Below are positions 1-22,451 of a stretch of 64,000 nucleotides of DNA, in pieces. A model generated the notes under the pieces. That model saw nothing but the letters and a program-made list of their open reading frames with translations, was not told where the DNA came from and did not search any database. The position numbers were made by a program, and so were the translations under genes. The stretch's first letter is position 1. The number at the start of each line of letters is the position of its first letter. This DNA is from an uncultured virus (IMG/VR IMGVR_UViG_3300031760_006602) (Duplodnaviria > Heunggongvirae > Uroviricota > Caudoviricetes): IMG/VR virus record IMGVR_UViG_3300031760_006602, one strand, 5' to 3'.

Positions 1-2
1 TT

Positions 3-542
3 GATACTGGTGGTCTATCTAAAGATTTGCTTAATATTGATTACAATACAGTATCAAAAGAAATTTCTGAAATGACTAAAGAATTTTTAGAAGACCATAC
101 AAAAGCAGAAGTACCACATGAACATTTGGCAAGAAACGTTTATATTAATACAATATATAGTTTTTTACGTGGGTTTTATAGTAGTTATTGGTATAAAGAA
201 AAATTTATTTTATGTAATTGCCAAAATGGTTTATCTACGTTAAATCTTGGCATTGATGGTACATTATATCCATGTCATAATACCAGTGAATCATGTGGAA
301 ATATTTATATGCCATATTTTCAATATTTAGAAAAACTAATGAAATTTGACGATACAAGACGTCACTATGAAGAAGAATGTAAAGATTGTCTTGCATTAGC
401 ATATTGTCATTGTGGATGTAAAATGGTCAAAGACAAAGAACGTAAAGAAAGCTATTGTAAATTAAAACGAGCTATCTTTGTTCCTATTTTATCTTTGGTT
501 CAAAATTTCAAGGAAGAAAATTATAAAAAGGATGAATCATAA
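3..542 (+). CDS. Radical SAM/SPASM protein, C-terminal part (5'-truncated by window edge)
   Basis: Frame is open from the window start. SPASM-type Cys motifs (CNC...GTLYPCH...CKDCLALAYCHCGC...YC). Clear paralogue of 4817..5917 (shared ESYCKLKxAIFxP). Confidence 0.85.
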   Translation, partial: DTGGLSKDLLNIDYNTVSKEISEMTKEFLEDHTKAEVPHEHLARNVYINTIYSFLRGFYSSYWYKEKFILCNCQNGLSTLNLGIDGTLYPCHNTSESCGNIYMPYFQYLEKLMKFDDTRRHYEEECKDCLALAYCHCGCKMVKDKERKESYCKLKRAIFVPILSLVQNFKEENYKKDES

Positions 543-544
543 TT

Positions 545-2137
545 ATGTCATTGCAAGTATGGTTGCCGTTAGATGGTAACTTAGAAAATAAAGGAATAGC
601 CGATGTAACAATAACAAATAATGGTGCATCTGTTGTCACAGATGGTAAAGTAGGAACATGTTATTCCTTTAATGGTAGTAGCTATGTTCACATTTCAAAA
701 CCATTAAATATGACTACTATTAAAAATACCTCTATATGTGCTTTTGTAAAAAGCACAGGTAGTACATTAGCTTTAGGTGGAATATCACATGACCAGGGTG
801 CAACAGAAGCCTGTATGACTTTATATACCTCTGGTTGGCAGTTTGTAGGAAGTAGCACATGGAAATATGCTCCAGGCGGTACTATAGCCAATACATCTGT
901 ATGGCATCATGTCTGTTGTGTTATGACAGATACAAACATCATAACCTATTTAGATGGAAAAGAGTTTTCAAATGTAACTATTTCAAGTGTTGGTGTAGAT
1001 CAATTTAATTTAACAGCAAATACATTTGTAGAAATAGGTTGTGACCATCCGGGTGGCGATGAATTTTTAACAGGATTAGTTAAAGATTTCCGCGTATATG
1101 ACCATGCCTTGACAGATATAGAAGTAAAAGAAATATCAGATACATATGCCCCTCTAACATTAATTTGTCATCTCCCATTAGATAAAACTGATGGAAGTTT
1201 TACTGTATATGACGAATCTGGATATGGAAATAATGGCACACTAAGTACTAATAAACCGACTATAACATCTGGCGCACCGAAAAAATATAATTCGTCTATG
1301 TTATTTGCTAATGATAGATATGTTTCCATATCTATACCTTACATAACAAACTCCGCCAATTCTTATACTTTTTCGTGGTGGGGTAAATGTACAGTATATG
1401 AAAATAAAATGTATTGGGGATTTTCTGACGGAAATAGATTGAATTTATATGGTACTGGTGGTGGTTATTGTTGGAATACTGGTGACGGAGCGACTAATAA
1501 ATTTACCGGAACCATCTTTGCTCACGAAATAGACGGTAATTGGCATCATTTTGCTGTTACAGGCAATGGTACAAGTACTCAATTATATATAGACGGTGGG
1601 TTTAGAGCTAATGCTACTACATATAAAGGAATAACCGGTACAAATATTATTATTAATGGTTGGAATACTGCAAACGATTATAATTTTAATGGTCAATTAT
1701 CTGATTTCCGTATATATGCATCAGTTTTATCAGAAGAAGAAATATTTGAATTATATAATACGACAAACCATCCAAATTTAAATTCTACTGTTTTTACAGA
1801 TACAGCTTCTTTTACAAATGAATCTGATCTGTATGTAAAAGAAATACATTTACATGAATTACAGAATGCCATAACAAAATTAAATTCGTATCTACCTAAT
1901 GTAGATAATTGTGGATATGTAAATTGTTGTGAATCATGTCAGGATTCATGTATCTGCCAGTCAGATAAATGCCAGTCATGTCAGAATGCTTGTAATCAAT
2001 GCACTGATAAATGCCAGTCATGTCAGAATGCTTGTAATCAATGCACTGATAAATGCCAGAAATGCCAAAATACTTGTACTCAATGTACTGATAAATGTCA
2101 GTCTTGTCAATATGTCCACAATAGAAGATGTATGTAA
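545..2137 (+). CDS. Tandem LamG/concanavalin-like domain protein with Cys-rich C-terminal repeat tail (putative receptor-binding/virion protein and rSAM substrate)
   Basis: Two LamG-like repeats (WLPLDG/HLPLDK...WHH...YLDG/YIDG...DFRVY/DFRIY). C-terminal tail with about 21 Cys in CQSCQNACNQCTDK repeats. Confidence 0.75.
   Translation: MSLQVWLPLDGNLENKGIADVTITNNGASVVTDGKVGTCYSFNGSSYVHISKPLNMTTIKNTSICAFVKSTGSTLALGGISHDQGATEACMTLYTSGWQFVGSSTWKYAPGGTIANTSVWHHVCCVMTDTNIITYLDGKEFSNVTISSVGVDQFNLTANTFVEIGCDHPGGDEFLTGLVKDFRVYDHALTDIEVKEISDTYAPLTLICHLPLDKTDGSFTVYDESGYGNNGTLSTNKPTITSGAPKKYNSSMLFANDRYVSISIPYITNSANSYTFSWWGKCTVYENKMYWGFSDGNRLNLYGTGGGYCWNTGDGATNKFTGTIFAHEIDGNWHHFAVTGNGTSTQLYIDGGFRANATTYKGITGTNIIINGWNTANDYNFNGQLSDFRIYASVLSEEEIFELYNTTNHPNLNSTVFTDTASFTNESDLYVKEIHLHELQNAITKLNSYLPNVDNCGYVNCCESCQDSCICQSDKCQSCQNACNQCTDKCQSCQNACNQCTDKCQKCQNTCTQCTDKCQSCQYVHNRRCM
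1964..2110 (+). repeat. 42-bp coding tandem repeat (about 3.5 copies) encoding a 14-aa Cys unit
   Basis: gataaatgccagtcatgtcagaatgcttgtaatcaatgcact is repeated exactly at 1964 and 2006, followed by diverged copies. Confidence 0.9.
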
Positions 2138-2153
2138 TTAGTTAACAGGGTAA

Positions 2154-3128
2154 ATGCCTATGAATATAATTAAATTTAACGATATAACAAATATACAAGA
2201 AATAATTACATCTCTTATCGAATCTAAAGGATTAGATGTTTCTGACTGTGAAGCCAAAACATTGCAAGATGGTTCTAAATGGATTCGCATTTTTCACCAT
2301 GCCCATAAAAACAATACTGTTTGGTTTACAAATTACATAGAAGCCTTGTCGTGTTCTAATCCAGACAAATTTAGTAAATTATATTTACTTGACCATTTTA
2401 GAAGAAATGATGGTAAATATGAATTTATGTTAGAATATCCAGTAGAATTTCCAAATCAGATAATTCGATGGAAACAAACAAATAATCCATGGCGCGATTA
2501 TACTGGGACTGCTGGTTCAACTGCAGTAGCTGGTTATGAACCTGTGCAAGTAGATATTGCTGATTCCTATAATCATGGCAAAGGTTTGGTAAGACACAAC
2601 CAAGCTTATAACTCTAATAGTCCATGTTTGTTGAAAGGATGTCCTGGTATCGGAGATTGGTGGTATGCAATAGGACAAGCAGCTATTTATGAAACGGGTA
2701 TGCCAGGTCCTAATAATGTTGTAGTTTCTATCGTTGATTTATGGGTTCGTATTGATAATACAGAATATGATAAATTAAATGATATCGATACAGAAATTAC
2801 TGGATACGTTAAAAAACCAGACATTCAAAAGCTACAAGATGCAATACATTTTTTAGAAACAAAATTTAATCAGAATTGTTGCCAATCGAATTATTGTCAG
2901 ACTTGTCAGTCTGATAAATGTGAATCTTGTCAAGATGCTTGTACTTGTCAGTCTAATAAATGTGAAAAATGTCAGGAAGCTTGTACTTGTCAGTCTAATA
3001 AATGTGAAAAATGTCAGGAAGCTTGTGCTCAATGCAGTAACAAATGTGAAAAATGTCAGGAAGCTTGTACTTGTCAGTCCCAATGTTCTAATGAAACTTG
3101 CCAAGCAACATGTGCGCAATCTCATTGA
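2154..3128 (+). CDS. Fibrinogen-C-like/lectin-like domain protein with Cys-rich C-terminal repeat tail
   Basis: DGSKWIRIFHH...KFSKL...YEFMLEYP...WWYAIG resembles fibrinogen-like phage tail domains. Tail has about 23 Cys in CTCQSNKCEKCQEA repeats. Confidence 0.6.
   Translation: MPMNIIKFNDITNIQEIITSLIESKGLDVSDCEAKTLQDGSKWIRIFHHAHKNNTVWFTNYIEALSCSNPDKFSKLYLLDHFRRNDGKYEFMLEYPVEFPNQIIRWKQTNNPWRDYTGTAGSTAVAGYEPVQVDIADSYNHGKGLVRHNQAYNSNSPCLLKGCPGIGDWWYAIGQAAIYETGMPGPNNVVVSIVDLWVRIDNTEYDKLNDIDTEITGYVKKPDIQKLQDAIHFLETKFNQNCCQSNYCQTCQSDKCESCQDACTCQSNKCEKCQEACTCQSNKCEKCQEACAQCSNKCEKCQEACTCQSQCSNETCQATCAQSH
2904..3080 (+). repeat. 42-bp coding tandem repeat (about 4 copies) encoding a 14-aa Cys unit
   Basis: tgtcagtctaataaatgtgaaaaatgtcaggaagcttgtact-type units in tandem. 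Confidence 0.9.
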
Positions 3129-3174
3129 TATTAGTAAAAATATAGATTTTCATTTTTATTAAAGGATTAAAATA

Positions 3175-3969
3175 ATGATTTATATAATAAATGCAGCAAA
3201 TAACAATAATAATAGTAATTTTAAGGATATTTCTTATCAATATTTAATTCAAAATAATGAATTAAATATTGTTTTACAAATAAATTATCCTGATGAATCG
3301 TATTTACCGTCTGATACATTTTCTGTCTCAATAAATATTGACCAATATGCCGGAAAATATATTACTATAAGATTGATTAGAGATTTTATTCCTATTAAAA
3401 ATGGGAAAACATATTCTATGTTCCAAAAATTTTTAGAACCATTAATTAATTTTGATTATTCTAATTTATATGATGTTGGTTATTCTATTAAAGATATAGG
3501 AAGTCTAAGATTTTTGTCTTTATACATAACTAAAAATAAGCAAGATATATATATTCATCCGTTTTTTTATATAAATCCTGATTCTATAAATAAAGATGGA
3601 TATCAATATATTGAAAAAGAAATGATAAATTCCGACCATTTATCTATGTTAACATCCTCTTGTCAAGAATTACGGGAATATATTGAAAAATGGAATATGA
3701 AAAAGTTTATATTAAATCCAAATATAGATATATCGAAATCAGCAACATATTTAGAAACAGAAGTTGATACTTTATATAAAATTATTAATATACTGTTAGA
3801 CAAAATAAAAATTGATGTTTCTGAATATCAACCAATTATTGATGCAGTAGAACGAAATAATGTCTTAAATATTAAGAACTTAGAAAAACTTGTTTCAGAA
3901 ATAGACGAAGACAAACAAAATATTCGTAAACAACAAAAAATTTATTATGATAAAGCCTATAAACAATAA
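3175..3969 (+). CDS. Hypothetical protein in the rSAM cluster
   Basis: 264-aa ORF, co-oriented, with no recognised motif. Confidence 0.6.
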   Translation: MIYIINAANNNNNSNFKDISYQYLIQNNELNIVLQINYPDESYLPSDTFSVSINIDQYAGKYITIRLIRDFIPIKNGKTYSMFQKFLEPLINFDYSNLYDVGYSIKDIGSLRFLSLYITKNKQDIYIHPFFYINPDSINKDGYQYIEKEMINSDHLSMLTSSCQELREYIEKWNMKKFILNPNIDISKSATYLETEVDTLYKIINILLDKIKIDVSEYQPIIDAVERNNVLNIKNLEKLVSEIDEDKQNIRKQQKIYYDKAYKQ

Positions 3970-4143
3970 ACTTATTTTGAGAGTTGAATATTCGCAAGAT
4001 TGGCCAATGTTATTAGATGTTTATTCTAATTGTCATATTATTTTGGAATCTGATAGTTTCAAAAAGGATAAACATACTTTACATGTATTACAATATATAG
4101 AAAAATATATTCAAGAACACGATATAGAATTTGAGATTAGATA

Positions 4144-4812
4144 ATGTTTGAAAGAAATATATATGCTTATTCCGTATGGGACCAAGAAAAATTATGGAAA
4201 GCTACAGTAGTTGTAGTTGGAGTAGGTGGCGGTGGAGGCATTGTCGCTGAATTATTAGTTCGCATTGGAGTAGGACACATTGTTCTTGTGGACGGAGATA
4301 AATTTGATGAAAGTAATTTAAATCGTCAAATTTTTGCTACACAAAATACAATTGGAATTAACAAAGCAGAAGCAGCTAAAAAAAGACTATTATCTATTAA
4401 CCCATATATTAACATAGAAACATATTCTACATTTTTATCTACGGATAATAATATTATAAAATTATATCCAAATGCTATTATTTGTGATTGTGCAGATGGA
4501 ATAGAAAATAAATTAATGGTTGCAGATTTATGCGCGCAAACAAATAATAAATTAGTAACAGGTGGAGATGGAATATTGGATTGTTTTGTTGCAAAATTTA
4601 GCAAACCGTCAGAAATAAATACTCATATTGTATTTAAAGATACAAAAGATGATGGTACAATATACTCTCCAAATCCAGTTATAGTTTGGATGCAAGCATC
4701 AATACAGGCATATGAAGTAATTAATTCTATCCTTAATTATAATCAAGATGTAGACAATAAAATACAGTGGTATAATCTTGCGACATATACAAATACGATA
4801 ACAGAGGAATAA
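4144..4812 (+). CDS. ThiF/MoeB/HesA (E1-like) adenylyltransferase
   Basis: VVVVGVGGGG nucleotide-binding loop, DGDKFDESNLNRQ, GINKAEAA, CADG. Confidence 0.9.
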   Translation: MFERNIYAYSVWDQEKLWKATVVVVGVGGGGGIVAELLVRIGVGHIVLVDGDKFDESNLNRQIFATQNTIGINKAEAAKKRLLSINPYINIETYSTFLSTDNNIIKLYPNAIICDCADGIENKLMVADLCAQTNNKLVTGGDGILDCFVAKFSKPSEINTHIVFKDTKDDGTIYSPNPVIVWMQASIQAYEVINSILNYNQDVDNKIQWYNLATYTNTITEE

Positions 4813-4816
4813 TTAT

Positions 4817-5917
4817 ATGAAGTATTTAAATAAAGATATAGATACTATTTTTATAGTTCTTGGAAAAGGGTGCAATTTTAATTGCAGATATTGCATGCAA
4901 AATGAAACACATAAATCTGGTATTATATATCCTACAGAAATAAATGAAGATATTTATGAGTTTATAGAAGAAATTGTAGCTAATCAAAAATATCCTCCGT
5001 ATATTCATTTTTATGGTGGTGAACCATTATTATATAAAGACAAAATAAAAATAATTGTAGGAAAACTTCAGCATATAAATAATATACGATTTTCTATAAT
5101 AACTAATGGAAGCTTAATTGATGAAGAAATGATAAATTTATTTAATAGTCATGATTTTCATGTAAATATATCATGGGATGGGCATTTTTCTTCTAAAACA
5201 AGAAAGCGAGATGTGTTTAAAGAAAATAAAGAAAATTTATTTAAAATAAATCAATTAGGTATTTCAATGGTAATTAGTTCTATTACACCATTGGGTCAGT
5301 TAATTAATGATGCACAAAACTTATTTAATGAATATAAAGAAAAAACAGGAAATGATTTGTATATAAATTATGACGAAGTTTACGATGCAAATATAGCAGA
5401 TAAATCTTTATTAAACGTTGACTATGAAGAATATAGTAAAATAGCGCGTAGAATATTTAAAGAATGTATTAAGATAAAGACTGGAGAAATTAATATTCCA
5501 TTGGATACATTCAAAAAAAAATATTGGGCAAAGATGAGTTTTTTTGAAAGAATGTATTGGAATGTTCGTAACTATGCTACAAATGAAAAAAAATGTATAA
5601 AATATATGGCACGCTGTTGTAATGGGATTGAGATTCTAAATTTAGATTTAGAAGGAAATTTATATTCTTGTCATAACTGTGATACAAAGTTAGGAACTAT
5701 CTATTCAAGTTATATTAATTATTTAGATGAATTATTTAAAAATGATGATATTAAATATTATTTTAAAAAATATTGCTCTCAATGTTTAGCATATCCGATT
5801 TGTCGTGGAGGATGTAAACTTATAGGAGAAGAAGTTAGAAATGAATCTTATTGCAAGTTAAAAAAAGCAATATTTATTCCAGCTATTGAAGAAATTTTAG
5901 CTATTACAAAACAATGA
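4817..5917 (+). CDS. Radical SAM/SPASM maturase-like protein
   Basis: CNFNCRYC (CxxxCxxC), YGGEPLL, TNG, SWDG, and a C-terminal SPASM motif CSQCLAYPICRGGC. Confidence 0.92.
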   Translation: MKYLNKDIDTIFIVLGKGCNFNCRYCMQNETHKSGIIYPTEINEDIYEFIEEIVANQKYPPYIHFYGGEPLLYKDKIKIIVGKLQHINNIRFSIITNGSLIDEEMINLFNSHDFHVNISWDGHFSSKTRKRDVFKENKENLFKINQLGISMVISSITPLGQLINDAQNLFNEYKEKTGNDLYINYDEVYDANIADKSLLNVDYEEYSKIARRIFKECIKIKTGEINIPLDTFKKKYWAKMSFFERMYWNVRNYATNEKKCIKYMARCCNGIEILNLDLEGNLYSCHNCDTKLGTIYSSYINYLDELFKNDDIKYYFKKYCSQCLAYPICRGGCKLIGEEVRNESYCKLKKAIFIPAIEEILAITKQ

Positions 5918-7728
5918 AAAACGTTTATATTAGTAATGCAATTATCTTTTTAACTCATAAATGTAATTTACGATGTCCATACTGTTTTGAAGACCATAAT
6001 AGAACAGAAGATGTATCGTTATCTACAATTGACGCTTTTTATGATTTTGTTAAAAAAGCGCACACATTACCAACAATAAAAATAGAAATGTTTGGTGGTG
6101 AGCCAACATTTAATAAAGAATTATTTTTATACGCATTCCATAAATATTGTATGGATCCTGATATTCCTGGTCATTTTTTTTCAATGACAAACGGACGAAT
6201 TATTGATGAAGCCTATATCAAGGAAATTCGAAATATTTTAAATCATGCTGTTAACAAAAATAAACGATTTTTGTTTTATGTTAGCATTGACAATATAAAT
6301 AATTCTATTAAAAATTTAAATGATGTTGCAAATACATTACGACTTTTAAAAAAATATGATTTAAGATTTACAGTTGAAATTGTTATTAATAAAAATAATT
6401 ATAAGAATTTATATAATTTTGTAAAAGCACTTTTGCCCTTTGAACCATACGATATTAATTTGAGACGTCTTTGCAATACATCTGTATGGAAAAAAGAAGA
6501 AATTGATATAATCGAAGAACAATGTAAAAAAATTATTGATACATTAGATTATCATTGTATTATTTTTCCTGGTAAATATAATATATATAGTCATCAGATA
6601 GATCCATATTGCGCTATTAAACAGCATAATAAATATACAACATATTTTGTAGATGTTGATGGAGAAATATATCCATGTGAAGTTTGTGCATCATTAAAAA
6701 AATATTCAATGGGGTCAATTTATGATCCAGACAATATAAAACCAAAAAAATTCGATGTTGATTATTATGCACCAACAGCCTGTATGTTAGAAAAATATCC
6801 TGGCAATAAAGATTATGAGGCAATGTGTGACAGGATTATAAATTATCTTATTCAAAAACAGTTAACTGTGTTTTTTGAAATTACGGATAAGTGCAATTAT
6901 AATTGTAGTTTTTGTTGTAAGTTGTGGAGACAGGATAAGACAGGATTTATCACAGATAAAGTATTAGAAAAAATTATCAACCTGAAATCACCTAATTATG
7001 TAATTGCAGGTGGAGAACCTTGTATGGAACGAGAAAAAACTAAATATTTTGTTGAACATACATGGAAAACTTCACATTTAACGTTAAATACGAATTTGTC
7101 ATTATGGAGTCAAAATGATATTCAATTTCTTAATAAACGTAACGTATATTATACGATAGATTTTCCATCTTACAATAGAAAAGAATATAAAAAAATAACA
7201 CAAACCAATGATTTTATTTTTGACAAAGTGAAAGAAAATCTTTATTATGTTAATAAAAGTACATCACGTATTCACATTGTAATTAATGAAGATAATCGAA
7301 ATTCATGGAAACAAACAGTATTATGGCTAGCAACATTATATCAATTTAATTTATTTGTTGTAACACCATCAATATCATTTAATGAACCAAAAGATAAAGA
7401 ACAAATTTATAAGGAAATTAAATGGTTTTTAGACCATCATAAAAATTTAACAATTATAACATTGGCTAATGCCGAAGAAAATCAATATGTTCCAGTTAAT
7501 CATAAATGCAGTGCTGGTATAAATCGTTTTGTTGTGTTAGCAGATGGAAATATTGTACCTTGTGCGTGGAGTCGAAATCATATTCTTGGTCATATTTTAA
7601 AAGATAAAATTGATGATATACTAATTCGTGGACGACAATATTTTTATAGTTATCCACATGAAAAATTAGAAATTTGCAAAGGCATATTAGATGCACAGGA
7701 GGAAACTAATGCAAGGAATTCCAAATGA
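5914..7728 (+). CDS. Protein with two tandem radical SAM domains, each with a SPASM/twitch-like tail
   Basis: CNLRCPYC...FGGEP...GEIYPC, then CNYNCSFC...AGGEP...GNIVPC. Confidence 0.88.
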   Translation: MKNVYISNAIIFLTHKCNLRCPYCFEDHNRTEDVSLSTIDAFYDFVKKAHTLPTIKIEMFGGEPTFNKELFLYAFHKYCMDPDIPGHFFSMTNGRIIDEAYIKEIRNILNHAVNKNKRFLFYVSIDNINNSIKNLNDVANTLRLLKKYDLRFTVEIVINKNNYKNLYNFVKALLPFEPYDINLRRLCNTSVWKKEEIDIIEEQCKKIIDTLDYHCIIFPGKYNIYSHQIDPYCAIKQHNKYTTYFVDVDGEIYPCEVCASLKKYSMGSIYDPDNIKPKKFDVDYYAPTACMLEKYPGNKDYEAMCDRIINYLIQKQLTVFFEITDKCNYNCSFCCKLWRQDKTGFITDKVLEKIINLKSPNYVIAGGEPCMEREKTKYFVEHTWKTSHLTLNTNLSLWSQNDIQFLNKRNVYYTIDFPSYNRKEYKKITQTNDFIFDKVKENLYYVNKSTSRIHIVINEDNRNSWKQTVLWLATLYQFNLFVVTPSISFNEPKDKEQIYKEIKWFLDHHKNLTIITLANAEENQYVPVNHKCSAGINRFVVLADGNIVPCAWSRNHILGHILKDKIDDILIRGRQYFYSYPHEKLEICKGILDAQEETNARNSK

Positions 7729-8563
7729 GACTGCTTTAGCTATCCATATAACTGATAAATGCAACTTAAAATGCCCTGGTTGTTATACATTAGATAAACT
7801 AAGAAATACTGTTATCAATTATGATTATATTAAACTTGCCTTAGATAAATATAAACCAAAAGACATTGTATTTTTTGGTGGCGAAGCTATATTAGAACCA
7901 GATATTCTTAGAAAAACAATGAAAGAATATCCAGATATCCGATATTCGTTACATACAAATGGTTCTAATTTTAATAAATTCAATAAAGACATTTATGATA
8001 AATTATATAAGATTATTTTATCGTTAGATTCATTTAATCCAGAATGGCTTAAAAAATATAAATGTTATACAGATAAAGATATAGTTAGTTATCAAAATTT
8101 AATCAATACTTATCAAGATAAAATATCTGTAACACATAATGTTTTCGCCTCTCATAATGACCCAAATTATGTAAAAGATATGGAAAAATATAATTTTGTT
8201 ACAGATTGGTACGTATTTATTACAAAAGCACGTGACCAAGAGTTTTTACAGTATTTTAGAGAATATATGTCTGAATTTAATCGTAATATCAATACGATGC
8301 CAAAGCTTAGATTACTAACAAATGGTACGATTACAAGAGATATGAGGGGGGTTTATAACCTATTTCATGTAAATGGTTGGAATGATGAAAAGTTGAAAGA
8401 ACCTCTACCTGTATCTGATAAGTGTAGAAAATGTAAGTATTCAAAATGTTGTCAAGCTTTTATAATGTTTCCACATTTTGTAAAAGATATATTAGATACC
8501 GTAAATTATGAACCACATTTTTGTAAGTTTACTAAAATATTTTGGAGATATAGATATGGATAA
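7709..8563 (+). CDS. Radical SAM protein
   Basis: CNLKCPGC, FFGGEA, HTNG and a C-terminal CxxCxxxxCC. Start placed at ATG 7709 after a GGAGG RBS. Confidence 0.88.
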   Translation: MQGIPNETALAIHITDKCNLKCPGCYTLDKLRNTVINYDYIKLALDKYKPKDIVFFGGEAILEPDILRKTMKEYPDIRYSLHTNGSNFNKFNKDIYDKLYKIILSLDSFNPEWLKKYKCYTDKDIVSYQNLINTYQDKISVTHNVFASHNDPNYVKDMEKYNFVTDWYVFITKARDQEFLQYFREYMSEFNRNINTMPKLRLLTNGTITRDMRGVYNLFHVNGWNDEKLKEPLPVSDKCRKCKYSKCCQAFIMFPHFVKDILDTVNYEPHFCKFTKIFWRYRYG

Positions 8564-9113
8564 TAAAACATTCGAGTTGGCAACAAAAGTTATTAATGGG
8601 ACAGCCTCTATATATAAAGAAGAAAATAAAGAACAAGTACCTTATTATTTTCGTAGTTCGGTAGAACAAGTTGTAAGAGATTATGAAAATAATGATAGTG
8701 AGTATTTTAAAAAAGCTCGTGAGTTAGCTATTGAAAAAACAGGTGAAATGTTTGCAGAAAAAAGAGATAAAGTTCGTTGGATTAATGGTTTAGGGTTTGA
8801 TTGTGAAAACGAAGATATTACAAATTTTCTTGCTTCTTATATCAAATTAAAAGATGATTATGATAAATGGGTAGCAAATGGAAGTCAAGGAAATGAACCT
8901 ACTACATATTATAAGGTTTATATAAATCAAGAAACAATGGCTAAAACTGTAGTACCTTTGAATATAGAAAACTTTAATCAAGTTTATGAGACTGTTAGAA
9001 CAAGTCAGTTTGAAGCATATGCTTGGTTAGAAACCTCACGTGCACAGATTAATTTAACACAAAATTATACTGAACTTGAGCAGGTATTAAGTCAGTTAAA
9101 TATTAGTTTATAA
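8556..9113 (+). CDS. Hypothetical protein, resembles DUF4376-type tail-fibre-associated proteins
   Basis: RBS ggaga before ATG 8556. KRD...INGLGFDC and a helical C-terminus; the resemblance is by eye only. Confidence 0.45.
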   Translation: MDNKTFELATKVINGTASIYKEENKEQVPYYFRSSVEQVVRDYENNDSEYFKKARELAIEKTGEMFAEKRDKVRWINGLGFDCENEDITNFLASYIKLKDDYDKWVANGSQGNEPTTYYKVYINQETMAKTVVPLNIENFNQVYETVRTSQFEAYAWLETSRAQINLTQNYTELEQVLSQLNISL

Positions 9114-9149: not shown

Positions 9150-9180
9150 TTATAGAGATGGAATAATTCCATCTCTATAA
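9150..9180. terminator. Near-perfect inverted repeat ending the rSAM cluster (probable terminator or binding site)
   Basis: ttatagagatggaat-a-attccatctctataa. Confidence 0.65.
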
Positions 9181-9296: not shown

Positions 9297-11603
9297 TTGG
9301 CAATTTTAATTGAAAAAAGGGATGGAAGGTTAGTAGTATTTTCAAAAGATAAAATTGTAAATGCAATGTCAAAAGCATATTTTTCTACACGTAAGGAGTT
9401 TGACTCTAATTTTTCTGATTTATCTGATTCTGTATCTTGTTATATTGAACGAAGAGCTCTTGAAAATAATAGTAAGTTAAATGTAGAAGACATTCAAGAC
9501 ATTATTGAACATAAGTTAATGTGTAGTCAATATAAAGACGTAGCAAAATCCTATATAAAATATAGAGACCATAGAAGTATAGAAAGAGGTAGAAGGTCTG
9601 AGTTAGTTAAAAATATTTCAGAAAAAATAAGAGCTAAAAATGTTCAAAACCAAAATGCAAATATGGATGAAAAGTCTTTTGGTGGTAGAATGGGAGAAGC
9701 TCGAAACGAGTTAATGAAAGATTATGCATTGAAATATTGTATGTCTGAAATGTCACGTAATAATCATTTAGAGAATATTATTTATATTCATGATTTGGAT
9801 AGTTATGCTGTAGGTATGCATAATTGTATGTCAATGCCTTTAGATGATTTATTAAAAAATGGGTTTATTACAAGACAAACAGATGTAAGACCCGCGCAAT
9901 CTTTAAATACGGCTATGCAGTTAGTAGCGGTATTGTTTCAGTTACAGAGCTTACAACAATTTGGGGGTGTAAGTGCCACTCATTTAGATTGGACAATGGT
10001 TCCGTATGTTAGAAAATCATTTACAAAACATCTTGCAGATGGTATGAGGTATGTAGAAGGAAAATCAGAATATAAGACTGAAAGATTTTGGAAATGGTTA
10101 AAACATGATGAAAATCACCCAGATGGTTTAATTCATATGGATGACGAAGAGTTTAAAAGTTTACATGAGCCCGCTTGGGAATATGCTATAAATATGGTGG
10201 AAAGAGAAGCTTCTCAAGCTGTAGAGGGGTTATATCATAATTTAAATACACTTCAAAGTAGGTCAGGAAATCAATTACCTTTTACTTCTATCAATTATGG
10301 GACATGTACACTTCCTGAAGGAAGGTTGATTACTAAAGTTTTGTTAGATGTATCAATAGATGGAATAGGTAAGTTACATAGAACACCAATTTTCCCATGT
10401 GGTATCTTTCAATATATGAAAGGGGTAAATGATAAAGAAGGAACTCCGAATTATGATTTGTATAGGTTAGCTCTTAAATCTACCGCAAAAAGGTTATACC
10501 CTAATTATGCAAATGTAGATTGGAGTGGTAATGCTGGGTATGATATTGATAATCCAAGTACATATTTTTCAACAATGGGTTGTAGAACCGCAAATGGTTT
10601 AGATATTAATCAAACAGACCCAAAATTGAAACAGTTGAAAGATGGACGTGGTAATCTTTGTCCTGTTACTGTTATACTCCCGAAAATTGCTATGATAGCG
10701 AAAGAGAAAGCAGAAGAGACTCATAAAGATATAGTAGATGTTTTCTTCGATGTTTTAGAAAACAAAATAAAAGAAGCTAAAGATATGTTAATAGAACGTT
10801 ATCATTGGCTTTGTATGCAGTCTCCTGATTCAGCAAGATTTATGTATGAAAATCATGTAATGTATGGATATAAAGAAGATGAAGGAATTGAATCAGCGTT
10901 AAAACATGGTACATTATCTTTAGGTCAGTTAGGATTAGCTGAAACTTTACAGATTTTAGTAGGGTGTAATCATACAAAACCTGAAGGAATGAAATTAGCG
11001 AAAAGGATTGAAGGTTTGTTTGCTAAAAAATGTAAGGAATATAAAGAAGGGTATAAGTTGAATTTTGGGGTTTATTACACGCCAGCAGAAAATCTTTGTT
11101 ATACAGCAATGAAGAAATTCAAAGAAGAGTATGGTGAAATACCTAATGTTTCAGATAGGGATTATTTTACAAATTCTATGCATGTACCAGTATGGGAAAA
11201 ATTAAGTCCGTTTGATAAGATTGATGTAGAAAGTCAGTTAACAGGGTTTAGTTCAGCAGGTTGTATTACTTATGTAGAGTTAGATGGTTCTGTAAATCGT
11301 AACATTGATGCTCTTGAACAGATTGTAAATTATGCAATGGATAAAGATGTTCCTTATTTTGCGGTAAATGTACCTTCTGATTTGTGTTTAGATTGTGGGT
11401 ATCAAGGTGAAATTAATAATGAATGTCCACAATGTCATTCTAAAAATATTCAACAATTAAGACGTGTGACAGGGTATTTGACAGGGAATTATCTAACAGC
11501 TTTTAATAAGGGTAAGCAGGAAGAAGTGCATGATAGGGTAAAACATGCTAATAAGTTAGTAGATTTTGAAGGAAAAGAGCTTGAAGAAAAAGTAAATTTT
11601 TAA
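9297..11603 (+). CDS. nrdD: Anaerobic (class III) ribonucleoside-triphosphate reductase
   Basis: N-terminal ATP cone (IEKRDGR), IHDLD, MGCR, YTPAENLC, CxxC...CxxC and glycyl-radical motif RVTGYL. Confidence 0.97.
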   Translation: MAILIEKRDGRLVVFSKDKIVNAMSKAYFSTRKEFDSNFSDLSDSVSCYIERRALENNSKLNVEDIQDIIEHKLMCSQYKDVAKSYIKYRDHRSIERGRRSELVKNISEKIRAKNVQNQNANMDEKSFGGRMGEARNELMKDYALKYCMSEMSRNNHLENIIYIHDLDSYAVGMHNCMSMPLDDLLKNGFITRQTDVRPAQSLNTAMQLVAVLFQLQSLQQFGGVSATHLDWTMVPYVRKSFTKHLADGMRYVEGKSEYKTERFWKWLKHDENHPDGLIHMDDEEFKSLHEPAWEYAINMVEREASQAVEGLYHNLNTLQSRSGNQLPFTSINYGTCTLPEGRLITKVLLDVSIDGIGKLHRTPIFPCGIFQYMKGVNDKEGTPNYDLYRLALKSTAKRLYPNYANVDWSGNAGYDIDNPSTYFSTMGCRTANGLDINQTDPKLKQLKDGRGNLCPVTVILPKIAMIAKEKAEETHKDIVDVFFDVLENKIKEAKDMLIERYHWLCMQSPDSARFMYENHVMYGYKEDEGIESALKHGTLSLGQLGLAETLQILVGCNHTKPEGMKLAKRIEGLFAKKCKEYKEGYKLNFGVYYTPAENLCYTAMKKFKEEYGEIPNVSDRDYFTNSMHVPVWEKLSPFDKIDVESQLTGFSSAGCITYVELDGSVNRNIDALEQIVNYAMDKDVPYFAVNVPSDLCLDCGYQGEINNECPQCHSKNIQQLRRVTGYLTGNYLTAFNKGKQEEVHDRVKHANKLVDFEGKELEEKVNF

Positions 11604-11615
11604 GGGGTTCTGATT

Positions 11616-12119
11616 ATGAAGTTCGCAGGTTTTATGGAAAATGATGTAGTCAATGGTGAGGGGGTATGTGTTAGTTTTTGGACACAAGGATGTCCTCACC
11701 ATTGTAAGGGCTGCCATAACCCTCAAACATGGGATAGTACAAAAGGAAACGAGTTGCCAGAAAACTATGTAGATAAAGTAATAGAGAAGATAAACAGAAA
11801 TGGAATTTTAAGAAATTTGTCAATTTTGGGTGGAGAGCCTTTATGTAAGGAAAATCAAGACATAGTGTTAAATCTTGTTACAAAAGTAAGAAAAACTTAC
11901 CCTAAAATTAAGATTTATATTTGGTCAGGTTACAATTTTGAAGATTTAATTTGTCAAGAAAAGGTTGTAGATATTTTAAATGCTTCTGATGTTTTAGTAG
12001 ATGGTAGATTTGTATTAGAACAGAGAGATGTAACATTGCACTTAAAGGGCTCAAAAAACCAAAGAGTAATTGATTTACAAAAAACGTTAGATTTGGGTAA
12101 AATTATCTTGTATAGTTAA
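11616..12119 (+). CDS. nrdG: Anaerobic RNR activating enzyme
   Basis: GCPHHCKGCHNP, LGGEP, DGRF...GSKNQR; adjacent to nrdD. Confidence 0.96.
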   Translation: MKFAGFMENDVVNGEGVCVSFWTQGCPHHCKGCHNPQTWDSTKGNELPENYVDKVIEKINRNGILRNLSILGGEPLCKENQDIVLNLVTKVRKTYPKIKIYIWSGYNFEDLICQEKVVDILNASDVLVDGRFVLEQRDVTLHLKGSKNQRVIDLQKTLDLGKIILYS

Positions 12120-17897: not shown

Positions 17898-18755
17898 ATG
17901 GCAATTAGTTTGTTGAAACGATATAAAAATGAGATAGATTATATTAGAAGTAAACTTACTTTTAATTTTTGTAATGTTGGGTATTGTAGTATAATGATTT
18001 GCAGAAGTTTTCCTGTGCCAGGTACATCTAATCTATCTTTTAGTTATGGTGAGAATACAACATCTATTTCAGAGTTAATAAATGAAAAAAATATTGACTT
18101 TAAAAAACATGTTAAAATTATAGAACAAAGGAATTTGATTTATATTGGAATAAATCTTGAAGATATTAAATTTGAAAATTTAAAAAGATTTTCAAATTTT
18201 TATTTAGGGTATAAGTTTTTTGAAAGAGGGTTAGATGATATAGACTCTTATAGCATGGGAATATTTTATTATAATTTTCTATCAAAAGTTAAATTAATTA
18301 ATGATAAAGATATGTTGTTTTTAAAGACAGCAATGCCTGAAAATGATTTTCCTGAATTATATATTCTTATTAATGCTATTTTAGATGATGGGAATGATAG
18401 AATTGACCCAGACGATAGTTCTAATTATGAAAAGTTTTTAAAAATTTTAACGGATTATATTAAAAGTGGTAGACTGGATAAAGTTTATTTGTTTAGAGAG
18501 ATAAGAAGAAATATAAGTAATAGTTTAAATAAACCTTTTAAAGTTGGGTTGTATAGTGATTGTTATAAAACGTTAAAGGACAGACAAATATTGCCTTATG
18601 TGGTATATTCACCCTATGAAGGTTTAGTTAAGTATCAATACTCTTATAATTCTTATAGTGAGAAAAAGAATGTGATTCGGTTTGATATTAATAGTTTAAA
18701 GAATAGGGATAATGCTTATGCTCCGTGGGGATTAGTAGAGAGGTTAGAGGATTAA
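17898..18755 (+). CDS. Paralogue family A member 1 (unknown function)
   Basis: N-terminus MAISLLKRYKNE; LIYIGINL; LKDRQILP. Confidence 0.75.
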   Translation: MAISLLKRYKNEIDYIRSKLTFNFCNVGYCSIMICRSFPVPGTSNLSFSYGENTTSISELINEKNIDFKKHVKIIEQRNLIYIGINLEDIKFENLKRFSNFYLGYKFFERGLDDIDSYSMGIFYYNFLSKVKLINDKDMLFLKTAMPENDFPELYILINAILDDGNDRIDPDDSSNYEKFLKILTDYIKSGRLDKVYLFREIRRNISNSLNKPFKVGLYSDCYKTLKDRQILPYVVYSPYEGLVKYQYSYNSYSEKKNVIRFDINSLKNRDNAYAPWGLVERLED

Positions 18756-18758
18756 ATT

Positions 18759-19706
18759 ATGTCTATTAGTTTATTAAAACGTTATAGAAATGAAGTGATA
18801 GCTGTTTTATCTAAAACTAAAAAGTGTATTAAAGATGAGTGGGGAGATGATTTTGAAATACTTTTTACAGTTAAGTCACCTTATGCAGGTTATGAGTATG
18901 ATGTAAAAAGTGGAACTACTTCTTATTCTATAACTTTAAGGGTTAATAGAGTTTTTGCAAATAAATGGTTGGTAGATAAAATAAATGCTGTTGAAGATAG
19001 TGGGTTAGTTTATTTTGGGGTTGACTTGGATAGGAGTTTTGTAAATACTGTAATAAAATCATATTTTGATGTTAGTTATAACGGAGATATAGACTCTTTT
19101 ATTTGTAAAAACCCTATTAGAAATGTTATTTGGGAAAGAGAGAGATATAAGTTTAGAGAATATTCATCTGACAATGGTAATAGTCTTACTAATTATAGCA
19201 ATCCGTTATTACTTGGAAATATTGAAACTTATGCAGATTATGGTTTAATGGCTAAAAGAAATGATGGTGAGATAGAGTTTGTAGACCCTGGTTGGAGAAG
19301 TAAAGTTTTGGATGATTTTATATCAAATAATTTAAGTATGATTAAAAATTTAAATTATTTTAAAGTTTGTAGAAAAGAAATAGACAGTTTATTTTCTAAT
19401 TTAAGTATAAAGGTAGCAGATGGAGAGTTTCCAAAATTAAACAATAGAAGTTTTTTACCTATTGTTACAGTTAATTTTAATAAAAATGAGGTATCTTATT
19501 TATTTAAAACTACTTATGTGAATAAAGGGGTTTCATTTCCAGCATATGCGAAAGGTTTAATGAAATTAGATATAGAAACTTTTTTAAGTGGTGGTGGAAG
19601 AAATTATATTATTCCACCAACAAATGCATTAGAGATGGAGTATAAAGGCGGAAAGTGTAGATGTAATGACGGTAGTATGTTAAATATTAGTTTGTCAGTA
19701 GATTAA
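18759..19706 (+). CDS. Paralogue family A member 2
   Basis: MSISLLKRYRNE; AVEDSGLVYFGVDLDR; DGEFPKLNNRSFLP. Confidence 0.8.
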   Translation: MSISLLKRYRNEVIAVLSKTKKCIKDEWGDDFEILFTVKSPYAGYEYDVKSGTTSYSITLRVNRVFANKWLVDKINAVEDSGLVYFGVDLDRSFVNTVIKSYFDVSYNGDIDSFICKNPIRNVIWERERYKFREYSSDNGNSLTNYSNPLLLGNIETYADYGLMAKRNDGEIEFVDPGWRSKVLDDFISNNLSMIKNLNYFKVCRKEIDSLFSNLSIKVADGEFPKLNNRSFLPIVTVNFNKNEVSYLFKTTYVNKGVSFPAYAKGLMKLDIETFLSGGGRNYIIPPTNALEMEYKGGKCRCNDGSMLNISLSVD

Positions 19707-19725
19707 ATTAAAAGAGGGTTAGCCT

Positions 19726-20637
19726 ATGTCTATAAGTTTATTAAAACGATATAAAAATGAGATAGAGGTAATTTTAAGTAAAACTAAAAAGAGGTTATAT
19801 ATTGGTAATGTTAGCAATCATGTTTACTTTACTATAAAGTGTCCTTGGAGTGGGAGTGAAAATTCTTATTGTCATTCTTTGTACTTTGGAAATAAAATAC
19901 CTTTTAAAAAGTTACTTAAAGCAGTAGAAGATAGTGGACTGGTTTATGTAGGAATTGATTTAGATAGATATGTTGAACATCTTTTTTTAGATAATTCTTT
20001 TAGTGGAATTTATAATTATTTAAGCATTTCTGATATAGATAGAATTGCTGTATTTTTGCTTAGAGAAATGTTGGTTGGTGAGTTTAGGTATATCAGAAAT
20101 GAGTGTGGGGACTCAAGAAATTTAAATGGTTATAAAGGTGAATTGGTTCTTGAAAATTATAAAAATTATATAGATGGAAATATTTTTGAGAAAGACGGTA
20201 ACGGGAATATCCTTTGTAAGGAAGTTGGTTATTGGGATGTATATACGTTTTTTGATAAGTTTGTGGAAAATAATTATAAAGACACTATGGTAAAGAATAA
20301 TAAGTATTATAAGAGGTTCGTAAAAGCAGTAGAAGATTTTTATAGTAATATTAATTTAAAACTTGCTGATGGAGAGTTTCCAAAATTAAACAATAGAAAT
20401 TTCTTACCTATAGTAGTTTTGGATTTTGATAAGGATTCAGCTGTTTATCTTTATAAAAGTAGGTTAACCGATAGTGGTGGAACTGAAATGTATAGAAAAG
20501 GGTTAAATCGTGAAACTATACAGTATTTTTTACAAAGTACTGTATATATTGTGCCTTTTGTAAATACAATAGCAGTTGATTATCAAGGAAAAGAAGTTAG
20601 AATGAATAACTATGAACATATTTATGTTAAGGTTTGA
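19726..20637 (+). CDS. Paralogue family A member 3
   Basis: MSISLLKRYKNE; AVEDSGLVYVGIDLDR; DGEFPKLNNRNFLP. Confidence 0.8.
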   Translation: MSISLLKRYKNEIEVILSKTKKRLYIGNVSNHVYFTIKCPWSGSENSYCHSLYFGNKIPFKKLLKAVEDSGLVYVGIDLDRYVEHLFLDNSFSGIYNYLSISDIDRIAVFLLREMLVGEFRYIRNECGDSRNLNGYKGELVLENYKNYIDGNIFEKDGNGNILCKEVGYWDVYTFFDKFVENNYKDTMVKNNKYYKRFVKAVEDFYSNINLKLADGEFPKLNNRNFLPIVVLDFDKDSAVYLYKSRLTDSGGTEMYRKGLNRETIQYFLQSTVYIVPFVNTIAVDYQGKEVRMNNYEHIYVKV

Positions 20638-20652
20638 TTGAGGTTATTTGAA

Positions 20653-21573
20653 ATGTCCATTAGTTTATTAAAACGTTATAAAAATGAGGTAAATTTATGT
20701 GTGAAGGAGGTAAAAGAGGGGTTAAAAGGTTCAGATTTTTATGAAATTATTACGCCTGTACATGTAAAATTGCCCTATATTAATGATGACTTTGTTGGAA
20801 GGGATTTTTCTTTATCGATAGATGGGCTAGTATTAAATAATATATATGCAATAGAGTCTAATGGGTTAGTTTATATTGGTTCTGATATTACTAAAAAAAT
20901 TATGTCAGATATAATAAGTTATTCTATAAAACAAAAACCGTTTTGTTCTGAAGATAGTGTAGTTTTACATTATATGAAACAGATTTTGTTTAAAGAGATT
21001 GATTATATTACAGACATTTATCTTAATAGCTATGATGATAGTGTTGGTAAGTTTGACATTACCGGATATAGTAAAGATTTAGTATTAGAAGACGAGGAAT
21101 GGTATATATGGGGAGGTATCTTTGATAGAAAAGGTAGTAAACTCTATTGTAATTTAATTTATTTATCAGGTCTTGAAGAAAAGGTCGATAATATTTTAAC
21201 AGGTATGCGTAAATCCGGTGTTTTACAGAAAATTAAAATTTATAATAAGTTAAAAGAAATAGTTGAAGACCTTCATAATATCGAAGTTTCTTTGTCCGAT
21301 AAAGAATATCCAAAATTAAATAATCGTAAGTTTTTACCTATAGCTGTTATAGATTTTAGTAAAAATATTGTTTCTTATTATAAAGATAGAAGAAATATGA
21401 AAACAGAAGATAATGTAAATTTTTCTGCAAGTTCAAGGGGTTTAGTTAAAAGAGAGTTGGATGACTTTATGGGGGGTAAACGACTTTGTTATCCTCCTTT
21501 ACATTTATTAAAGTTTAGTATGAATGGTAGAGAGGCAAGACTTGGGGGAACTCTTGAGTTATGGAATAAATAA
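20653..21573 (+). CDS. Paralogue family A member 4
   Basis: MSISLLKRYKNE from ATG 20653; GLVYIGSD; EYPKLNNRKFLP. Confidence 0.8.
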   Translation: MSISLLKRYKNEVNLCVKEVKEGLKGSDFYEIITPVHVKLPYINDDFVGRDFSLSIDGLVLNNIYAIESNGLVYIGSDITKKIMSDIISYSIKQKPFCSEDSVVLHYMKQILFKEIDYITDIYLNSYDDSVGKFDITGYSKDLVLEDEEWYIWGGIFDRKGSKLYCNLIYLSGLEEKVDNILTGMRKSGVLQKIKIYNKLKEIVEDLHNIEVSLSDKEYPKLNNRKFLPIAVIDFSKNIVSYYKDRRNMKTEDNVNFSASSRGLVKRELDDFMGGKRLCYPPLHLLKFSMNGREARLGGTLELWNK

Positions 21574-21584
21574 TAGGTGTTATC

Positions 21585-22451
21585 ATGGGTTTAAGTTTAT
21601 CAAAAAGGTATAAAAATGAAATAGGGTTAGTATTAAATATAATTAAAAGAAATTTTGTTAGTAGCATAATATCTGATTATAGAAATTGTATTAGAAGGTT
21701 TTATGATTTTTCTTATAATGAATCAACTTTTAGTTTGTATTTAAATTGGTTAAGTTTGTCTAAAACTGATATAACTGAATTTTCAGTTTATGAGTTAAAT
21801 AAAAAGGTTTACATAGGATTAGATTTATCTAAAATAAGGTCTGAGTATTTTGATTTTCGAAGTTTAAATAGGGGTACTTATGATGCAGAAAATATATTTG
21901 ATGGGTATGCCGAAAATGAAGTAGATAATTGTACAATGTCTTGTATTTATTATATGTTAGAATATGATTGTTTGAGAAGGGAAAAAACAAGCAAGTTTGA
22001 TATAGTACCTTTTGAAATATGTAAAGAGTATGGTTTAGCTCAGATAGATACAGGTGGAAAAAGGGTTTATAAGGTAGATGATTTAACATTTCTTTTTAAT
22101 ATGGTAGCAAATCTATATTATAATAAGAAAAGGTTACAAGACTTAGATTGTTGGAATAAAGTTTATAAATGTGTGGACAGTATAGTAAACGATTCTTGTT
22201 TAGTATTAAGGAAGGGGTATTTTAAAGATATTAGTAACAGAAAATTTTTACCAGTTTGTGAAATTGATTTTAGTAAAGATACTGTAAGAGCGTGTGTAGA
22301 TTTTCAAAACGATTCAGCAAATCTCAAAAAATTTGATTTTTCTGATTTTGTTCGTAAGGGTGATGGTTATGGGTACTATTTACCTATGTACGCTTGTGTT
22401 ATGTGGGATGGTGATAAGCACTATGCAGATGGGACAGTTTATCGTGTTTAA
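21585..22451 (+). CDS. Paralogue family A member 5
   Basis: MGLSLSKRYKNE; VYIGLDL; ISNRKFLP. Confidence 0.75.
   Translation: MGLSLSKRYKNEIGLVLNIIKRNFVSSIISDYRNCIRRFYDFSYNESTFSLYLNWLSLSKTDITEFSVYELNKKVYIGLDLSKIRSEYFDFRSLNRGTYDAENIFDGYAENEVDNCTMSCIYYMLEYDCLRREKTSKFDIVPFEICKEYGLAQIDTGGKRVYKVDDLTFLFNMVANLYYNKKRLQDLDCWNKVYKCVDSIVNDSCLVLRKGYFKDISNRKFLPVCEIDFSKDTVRACVDFQNDSANLKKFDFSDFVRKGDGYGYYLPMYACVMWDGDKHYADGTVYRV

Follow-up and report, generated by a model that had tools for sequence, protein, structure and literature searches.

Radical-SAM genes and cysteine-repeat modules co-occur in phages and may act in tail-fibre maturation

The uncultured virus record IMGVR_UViG_3300031760_006602 of IMG/VR (Caudoviricetes) opens with a run of genes, at positions 1-9113 of the 64,000-nt stretch analysed here (the window), in which radical S-adenosylmethionine (rSAM) enzymes and a ThiF/E1-like enzyme accompany two proteins that end in Cys-rich tails. 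We find that these tails correspond to two conserved modules, termed A and B, which in many phages adjoin an rSAM gene of one subfamily, represented in the window by rS0 and rS1. Because the repeats and the enzymes co-occur in many phages, often beside tail-fibre genes, the enzymes likely cross-link host-binding parts of the fibres. Specifically, we propose, with a probability of about 0.5 and from sequence comparison, that CteB-like rSAMs install thioether cross-links in the two Cys-repeat modules, that the modules become parts of tail fibres, and that the accompanying lectin-like domains are those predicted to bind the host. Thioether formation is taken as the most likely chemistry because the best matches of the enzyme are CteB and PapB and because there is a precedent in CrpC, an enzyme with seven SPASM Cys residues (main text of PMC13692751).

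Two conserved Cys-repeat modules

The initial annotation of this DNA had described two large proteins with tails of more than 20 Cys residues, and counting bears this out. The LamG protein (545-2137) carries 21 Cys within residues 456-529 and the protein at 2154-3128 carries 23 within residues 242-320, enrichments with binomial probabilities of ~1e-20 and ~1e-22, respectively, against the 1.55% Cys of the rest of the contig. Both tails contain 42-bp (14-amino-acid) tandem repeats, at 1934-2109 in A and 2901-3079 in B, and the first Cys lies at 1910 in module A and at 2877 in module B. At loci with a close relative of the core rSAM, the enzyme gene is mostly followed directly by two small Cys-rich genes that align with the window tails in the same order. 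On these alignments the tails are two conserved paralogous modules and not private extensions of the proteins that bear them. Each module comprises a conserved leader segment, a fixed motif at the onset of the Cys residues, and a core of variable length; in 731 of 1253 cases across the module cores, the residue directly after Cys is Gln or Glu. In the AlphaFold model of module B a helix spans residues 26-43, at a low confidence (mean pLDDT 55.6) that makes the model unfit for structure search.

A profile search among 1.84 billion representatives gave 105 matches to the modules. By length thresholds of our own setting, 88 of these are stand-alone proteins, eight have an N-terminal domain and nine a C-terminal extension; the stand-alone family members are 80-170 amino acids long. 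Four of the nine extensions are merely longer Cys regions or doubtful matches, three are Hint-like, one is a Peptidase_S74 domain and one an unknown domain. Peptidase_S74 is joined to module B in P0173 (E 2.7e-14); Hint-like domains scoring below the cut-off are fused to it in P0176 and P0184, and a Hint domain in L196. In P0003 and P0004 module B is N-terminal and precedes a 170-amino-acid, beta-rich-looking domain, which indicates that it accepts fusions at either end. A separate Hint-like gene (L007:11847-12257; Hint_2, E 3e-5) follows module B in a prophage, and many stand-alone modules (L004, L022, L026 and L082) end in Asp-Asp-Gly-Gly or a similar acidic sequence, at loci that have neither ThiF nor rS3. 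The fusion to a lectin domain is thus real, yet it is a minority state in the module family. No Pfam or NCBIfam family covers modules A and B when their Cys regions are scanned, and module A has no match among 50,697 cultured-phage records.

Linkage of the modules to a core rSAM

To relate the modules to the enzymes we aligned rS1 with 70 relatives (71 sequences) and considered 233 loci fetched by their rSAM; a scan of viral contigs with the single rS1 protein found nothing, whereas a scan with the alignment succeeded. The modules follow the core-profile score closely. A or B is present at 97 of the 117 loci scoring at least 300, at none of 20 scoring 200-300, and at none of 96 below 200. If a Cys-ladder tail (see below) is counted as well, the figures are 108/117, 3/20 and 7/96. 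In the reverse direction, exact scans of IMG/VR for the A and B motifs gave 56 hits each, from each of which one out-of-frame hit (L236, L300) was dropped. All 55 in-frame loci with the B motif have an rSAM, as do 54 of 55 with the A motif, the one miss being a 39-amino-acid frame with four Cys. The order rSAM-A-B is kept in most loci, and the rSAM adjoins within about 400 bases. Tight linkage between the tails and rSAM/SPASM enzymes of the peptide-maturase type, as first suggested for this DNA, therefore holds in both directions (97/117 and 109/110), in sets that are redundant and rSAM-seeded. Among 71 clusters of loci, 38 have A or B and 50 have A, B or a Cys-ladder tail. One phage locus (L039:1710-12782) arrays seven rSAM genes around a single A/B pair. 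L022 and L082 each have a complete stand-alone set of rSAM, A, B, accessory gene and second rSAM, and L076, L077 and L083 lie in prophages of cultured Acidaminococcus or Megasphaera strains.

The core enzymes and their known relatives

The truncated rS0 is 36-46% identical to the rSAM upstream of module A at other loci and, by this comparison, is orthologous to the enzyme encoded immediately before that module in relatives. Together with rS1 it falls in one subfamily, whose 71 sequences share seven invariant SPASM Cys residues; these may leave an open site on the auxiliary cluster AuxI. rS1 has both a CxxxCxxC rSAM core and a SPASM domain. Its core motif begins at residue 19, and there is no PqqD-like N-terminal recognition element (RRE) of the kind found in enzymes acting on peptides that are made by the ribosome and modified after translation (RiPPs). 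The best PDB match of rS1 is 5WGG/5WHY (E 5.7e-31), a match that spans chain residues 97-417, followed by 8VPO and anSME; anSME is the next characterised match (E 4e-20), 11 orders of magnitude behind. The 5WGG/5WHY structure is named as that of CteB in PMC13692751. The best NCBIfam match is PapB (E 1.7e-23), far below cut-off, and none of the family cut-offs is reached: the scores are 83.4 against 340 for PapB, 56.9 against 425 for SCIFF, 61.6 against 500 for CcpM and 37.8 against 525 for TIGR04463.

With CteB/SCIFF and PapB the core enzyme thus shares its best structural-sequence and NCBIfam matches and the layout of the SPASM Cys residues. It differs in lacking an RRE, in scoring far below the family cut-offs, in having no independent CX3(D/E) motif in its putative substrates, and in the size of those substrates, which are 80-530 amino acids long with 10-25 or more Cys. 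A parallel in gene arrangement is CrpC of Methanococcus voltae, which according to the main text of PMC13692751 has seven SPASM Cys residues and installs ranthionine links in a 28.8-kDa Cys-repeat protein. As here, an rSAM/SPASM enzyme with seven SPASM Cys adjoins two paralogous proteins with leader-like and Cys-repeat parts (CrpA and CrpB), the substrate is of protein size, and C-x-x-Q/D-like motifs are present. Unlike rS1, CrpC has an RRE and is a TIGR04463 member, and its system is archaeal and chromosomal. That main text mentions neither phages nor tails, although the supplement on CrpA homologs could list phage proteins. CXXX-repeat targets (TIGR04114/TIGR04115), also raised initially as a comparison, gave no NCBIfam or Pfam match in the window tails or the scanned module Cys regions, where CxxC is the main spacing. 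The cassette would work like a ranthipeptide or CrpC pathway, yet by sequence it stands outside both, with no RRE and no cut-off reached. Our literature search, outside which most subscription papers fell, found no description of rSAM-modified phage fibres.

Evidence for a role in tail fibres

A tail-gene position is seen in relatives of the cassette only. In L007 the cassette is flanked on one side by genes for tail tube, tape measure and tail fibre and on the other by an amidase gene, and in L037 it comes after baseplate J. Among the neighbouring genes submitted for comparison, a PHROG tail match was found at eight of 12 loci; in all, nine of 13 loci examined have tail genes close by. The domains that carry the modules in the window point the same way. 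The protein at 2154-3128 matches PHROG 16097 (E 8.6e-13), which is annotated as a T4-like long-tail-fibre hinge connector, and a Cronobacter phage S13 protein (E 3e-11 over 88%). Its description as fibrinogen-like found weak support, with Atlas leads at 0.86-0.87 and no Pfam match, and the gp35-type hinge match is the firmer one. The LamG protein, in which the two LamG domains originally noted were recovered, weakly matches PHROG 8510 (E 5e-18), annotated as virion structural protein. One sheep-gut contig has 430 other letters in place of 376 nt at 1307-1682, within the second LamG domain, with both flanks aligning and module A kept; another run holds a second variant at 1279-1564 with 19 differences. 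The replaced stretch looks like a variable receptor-binding domain.

The enzymes also occur with fibre-like proteins that carry neither module. At L202 and L337 these enzymes come after a long fibre-like protein that has an Asn-Cys ladder at its end in place of A and B. Scanning by motif for such ladders with a Ser/Thr-His end gave 60 hits, of which 50 were out of frame and nine lay in frames of 13-56 amino acids; the sole real protein was the already known L390, from the same contig as L337. A more distant rSAM lies in the tail module of the cultured phages JWF (L234:9673-13194) and RSP15 (L235:7257-11167), and in JWF gp28 a Hint domain comes after an Asn/Asp-Cys ladder. As these are phages of aerobes, related pairs of an rSAM and a Cys-tipped fibre are not confined to phages of anaerobes, the setting supposed initially. 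Fusions in the module family and its relations involve Peptidase_S74, gp35-like, LamG and F5/8 domains. Likeness to the Peptidase_S74 chaperones and to the T4-like gp35 hinge accordingly lies in the fusion of B to S74 in P0173 and in the gp35-type match of the 2154-3128 domain; our paper searches found no report of enzymatic cross-linking of fibre parts of either type. Given the tail context, the gp35-type and virion-protein matches, the ladder-ended proteins, JWF and RSP15, and the replaced LamG stretch, a fibre role of the modules is likely. The earlier idea of a Cys core fused to tail-fibre domains thus gains from the fibre context in relatives, but the lectin fusion does not define the system, as the stand-alone majority makes clear.

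An optional second tier of enzymes

The initial annotation had counted the ThiF/E1-like enzyme as part of the system. The gene is present in the window, but it was found at none of the 110 in-frame motif loci and in six of the 71 clusters; five of these six also have rS3, and the sixth is a 2.4-kb fragment. ThiF is therefore not core, and belongs to an optional second tier with rS2a, rS2b and rS3. The two halves of the double rSAM, rS2a and rS2b, are encoded separately in five relatives. Apart from the 2.4-kb fragment, they were seen at rS3 loci only; L037 has rS3 alone. Both halves have reduced, twitch-like Cys sets, and like rS3 they show neither a full set of SPASM Cys nor a good full-length match. 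rS3 forms a discrete family, with 44 hits down to E 6e-36 and the next only at 1e-11. It has no match among the 50,697 cultured-phage records, and was found in one of 401 genomes of the order to which G001 belongs and in none of 401 of the class of G005, at most six candidates being scored per genome.

What distinguishes the second tier is the end of the substrate. All seven rS3 clusters with a visible substrate have one that ends in Ser-His or Thr-His, compared with one of 43 clusters without rS3 (Fisher 8e-8), and this holds for A/B modules and ladder-ended proteins alike. No substrate was seen on the rS3-ThiF contig of G001; a later search located both modules on a separate contig, where each has a Ser-His end and rS2a and rS2b come next, an out-of-sample hit. 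That ThiF is optional and that the second tier goes with a C-terminal Ser/Thr-His on the substrate are the new elements here.

Two known systems invite comparison. The HXS antiphage system (HxsA-D) uses an rSAM pair that gives +8 Da on a Ser-His motif of a protein (PMC13128918). Several rSAMs and a small partner maturing a protein at a Ser-His motif resemble the second tier, and rS2 weakly matches HxsC (E 1.7e-19) and HxsB (E 2.6e-14), well below cut-offs (69.8 vs 267.9). HXS differs in serving bacterial defence and in acting on internal His-Xaa-Ser repeats without Cys arrays, compared with one terminal Ser/Thr-His on a phage protein (PMC13128918). The cassette ThiF, for its part, shares the PF00899 fold and ATP-site motifs with MccB, PaaA and ThiF/MoeB, of which MccB and PaaA are among its matches. 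An alignment of five orthologs shows that it keeps the Gly-rich loop and NRQ motif, and has no CxxC zinc pairs and no invariant Cys. It also differs from these enzymes in having no RRE-sized extension and no Gly-Gly-ended partner: none exists among the cassette ORFs (open reading frames), and modules in ThiF loci do not end in Gly-Gly. A Gly-Gly/ubiquitin-like role for ThiF was rejected; modules with a Gly-Gly end are found at loci lacking it. With the ATP-site motifs kept and neither zinc CxxC pairs nor a Gly-Gly partner present, the sequence would fit an enzyme that adenylates a peptide C-terminus.

Accessory protein U

The 264-amino-acid protein U is a candidate substrate presenter or fibre chaperone. 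It forms its own family, found at 30 loci, and is present in all seven rS3 loci. Its model (pLDDT 76) has a beta-rich N-terminal half and a helical C-terminal half, and gave no Atlas match and no Foldseek match at E<=0.001 in PDB or BFVD. The best VIA Z was 7.2, on helices only, which is no clear fold match and no proof of a new fold. A U-family domain forms the C-terminus of an rSAM in a Duodenibacillus metagenome-assembled genome (L087:9878-11827), and JWF gp29 is U-like by a profile that included gp29 after its first match. U and an unrelated accessory protein, V (L017:12107-12958), are mutually exclusive: among 50 cluster representatives, 10 have U, 22 have V, none has both and 18 have neither.

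The cassette and its surroundings

The window covers the initial 64 kb of a linear viral contig of 71.7 kb, rated 29% complete by CheckV and thus probably one piece of a large phage; near-identical DNA occurs in gut runs from cattle and sheep. An rS1 of identical sequence is present on a 154-kb contig. The contig start falls within rS0, so that the DNA upstream is absent, and the truncation noted initially is that of the contig. Positions 1-9113 are filled by ten abutting ORFs, all on the plus strand, in the order rS0, LamG-module A, gp35-like-module B, U, 65-amino-acid ORF, ThiF, rS1, rS2, rS3 and a last ORF (Table 1). The four rSAM genes encode five rSAM domains, in agreement with the original reading of at least four such genes, one truncated and one double. 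Contigs of a second study cross both junctions and so support the fusions: a sheep-gut contig runs from the first rSAM through LamG to module A, and another spans the double-rSAM junction of rS2 gap-free.

Table 1. Features of the cassette and the hairpin that follows it.
Feature	Position	Strand	Evidence or remark
rS0, C-terminal SPASM half of core rSAM	1..542 (ORF 3-542)	+	TIGR04085 SPASM, E 8e-9; SPASM Cys pattern
Two LamG/ConA-like domains and module A	545..2137	+	PF13385 (Laminin_G_3), E 4.3e-34, two stretches
Module A: leader segment, VxNC motif, 21 Cys in Cys-Gln repeats	1790..2134	+	aligns with 32 homologs, mostly stand-alone
gp35-like domain (long-tail-fibre hinge; weakly fibrinogen-like) and module B, protein P0001	2154..3128	+	ends in Ser-His
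Module B: predicted leader helix, NCC motif, 23 Cys, C-terminal Ser-His	2781..3125	+	alignment; 105 representatives
Accessory protein U, 264 aa	3175..3969	+	family in 30 loci
65-aa ORF	3947..4144	+	similar-sized genes in the same place after U in L202 and L337
ThiF/E1-like adenylyltransferase	4144..4812	+	PF00899, E 2.9e-42
rS1, core rSAM/SPASM	4817..5917	+	seven SPASM Cys invariant; N-terminal RRE absent
rS2, fusion of two rSAMs (rS2a, rS2b)	5914..7728	+	two CxxxCxxC cores, two PF04055 matches
rS3, distinct rSAM family, probable start 7709	7691..8563	+	first SPASM Cys residues lacking
Last ORF of the run, probable start 8556	8508..9113	+	membership by position only
Terminator-like hairpin, 14 pairs, ends the run before nrdD	9150..9180	+	consensus scan; 4 found vs 2.0 expected

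The 65-amino-acid ORF has no homolog by BLAST, and its likeness to the genes in L202 and L337 is by position and by eye. No relative of the last ORF was found by BLAST, in Pfam or in the cultured-phage set; the idea that it is a DUF4376-type fibre-assembly protein obtained no match. A promoter scan gave fewer hits than chance (66 vs 78 expected), and one RNA run yielded only short pieces of sequence, which give no evidence of expression. GC skew is 0.08-0.24 in the cassette (1-8000) and 0.26-0.53 elsewhere in the window, which may reflect codon content or a different origin. An anaerobic ribonucleotide reductase gene (nrdD) and its activase gene (nrdG) follow at 9297-12119. At 17898-22451 stand five tandem genes for proteins of 285-315 amino acids whose first dozen residues are nearly identical, the first without a PHROG match. 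The window also encodes a PhoH-like protein (29209-29940), a transposase (49718-50605), an RNA ligase (50841-51905) and, at 39237-40772, a 511-amino-acid ORF that by eye is presumably a tRNA nucleotidyltransferase with an HD domain.

Proposed mechanism and alternatives

In the pathway that we propose, the leader helix of A or B would dock the substrate, with U perhaps helping in place of an RRE. rS0 and rS1 would bind a substrate Cys at the open site of the auxiliary cluster and link it to a carbon atom in a neighbouring residue (Gln/Glu, Asn/Asp or Thr), and the product would be a stiff, reduction-proof rod. The modules may then oligomerise on the fibre or as the fibre, and the Hint or S74 domains of relatives could cleave themselves off after folding. 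Where present, the second tier (rS2a, rS2b, rS3, the 65-amino-acid protein and ThiF) might modify the Ser/Thr-His at the C-terminus of module B, and ThiF would adenylate its terminal carboxylate. Taken to its full extent, this would mean that phages finish host-binding fibres by a two-tier, RiPP-like pathway. CteB-like rSAMs would staple transferable modules, each of a leader and a Cys core, that can be attached to lectin, hinge or fibre domains. Three undescribed rSAMs with ThiF would form a new cross-link or cap from the C-terminal Ser/Thr-His, by which fibre subunits might be joined covalently. We put this extended version forward tentatively and think it the less likely outcome.

Several observations weigh against cross-linked fibre modules, or against parts of the scheme. 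The contig shows no tail genes of its own, beginning within rS0 and continuing into nrdD after the cassette, and four of the 12 loci compared have no PHROG tail match among their submitted neighbours. No acceptor motif stands out in the module sequences, and a PapB-like CX3(D/E) rule is not supported: Gln is enriched at +4 and -2 only where a second Cys lies three residues away (82% vs 4%). The commonest Cys spacing, CxxC (428 of the gaps counted), also suits metal binding. In rS1, the open cluster site could be occupied by the extra unconserved Cys residues 260, 268 and 288. The loci are redundant, 238 of them reducing to 71 clusters, and 21 of these have neither module nor ladder by our criteria, some being short contigs or threshold misses such as L159. 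As both the A/B profiles and the motif patterns were derived from loci chosen by their rSAM, the linkage counts are also partly circular. For the second tier, L203 has a Ser-His end without rS3, and the layout of G001 is the same as that of L184. On the core rSAM tree the rS3 state needs four changes, and the link to the terminal His comes down to two independent pairs on well-supported branches, in the same direction (four on the best tree; sign test p 0.5). The link is thus strong in counts and weak in independent events.

The spacing of the Cys residues makes it necessary to consider that the arrays are metal-binding fibre rods (Zn or Fe-S) whose metal sites the rSAMs load, build or tailor. 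Metal sites occur in phage tail tips and spikes, the terminal His could serve as a ligand, and the want of an acceptor motif independent of Cys spacing would be no surprise on this account. We nevertheless consider it unlikely, as the core enzyme is closest to peptide maturases (PapB by profile, CteB by structure) and not to rSAMs of cofactor assembly, the core of variable length comes after a conserved leader-like helix, and freely varying repeat number and spacing suit an enzyme working motif by motif better than a fixed cluster site. Other radical chemistry on the fibre modules, such as conversion of Cys to formylglycine in the manner of anSME, epimerisation, C-C links or desaturation, is less probable still. 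It would accommodate the anSME match, the incomplete SPASM Cys sets and poor full-length matches of rS2a, rS2b and rS3, and the precedent of +8 Da on a Ser-His motif in HXS (PMC13128918). For the core enzyme, however, seven and not eight invariant SPASM Cys fit the thioether type as in CrpC, and the margin of CteB over anSME points the same way.

The remaining alternatives dispense with a modified fibre. A phage-borne RiPP cluster, which would mature the Cys core, cleave it off and release it as a toxin or signal, its position near tail genes being incidental, would explain why 88 of the 105 representatives are small leader-plus-core proteins, why no tail gene is visible on this contig and why a ThiF-type enzyme is at hand, since such enzymes act on RiPP C-termini. 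Neither a protease nor an exporter is found in the cassette, however, and fusions to Peptidase_S74, gp35-like, LamG and F5/8 domains, together with the same enzymes beside the long Asn-Cys-ladder proteins of L202 and L337, make release improbable. Most doubtful of all is the idea that the tails are unmodified disulfide solenoids, which regular 14-residue repeats do resemble, and that the rSAMs act elsewhere, on DNA, cofactors or the host. There are phage rSAMs that lack such partners; one is that of Campylobacter phage CPt10, which has no fibre gene annotated next to it (the Cys content of the neighbours was not assessed). Against this stand the near-complete two-way linkage and the short distance between modules and enzyme, the absence of modules beside all 96 distant rSAMs, and the odd numbers of Cys (21 and 23).

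Implications

If thioether cross-linking of fibre modules is the correct explanation, radical chemistry of the natural-product type would be part of how virions are assembled by many phages of gut anaerobes and by some cultured phages, and would add a post-translational layer to the building of receptor-binding fibres. The cassettes would also be a source of RRE-free thioether synthases that handle 10-25 Cys per protein, on a module tolerating fusion at either end, and rS3 would represent a small undescribed rSAM family with a named target, the terminal Ser/Thr-His.

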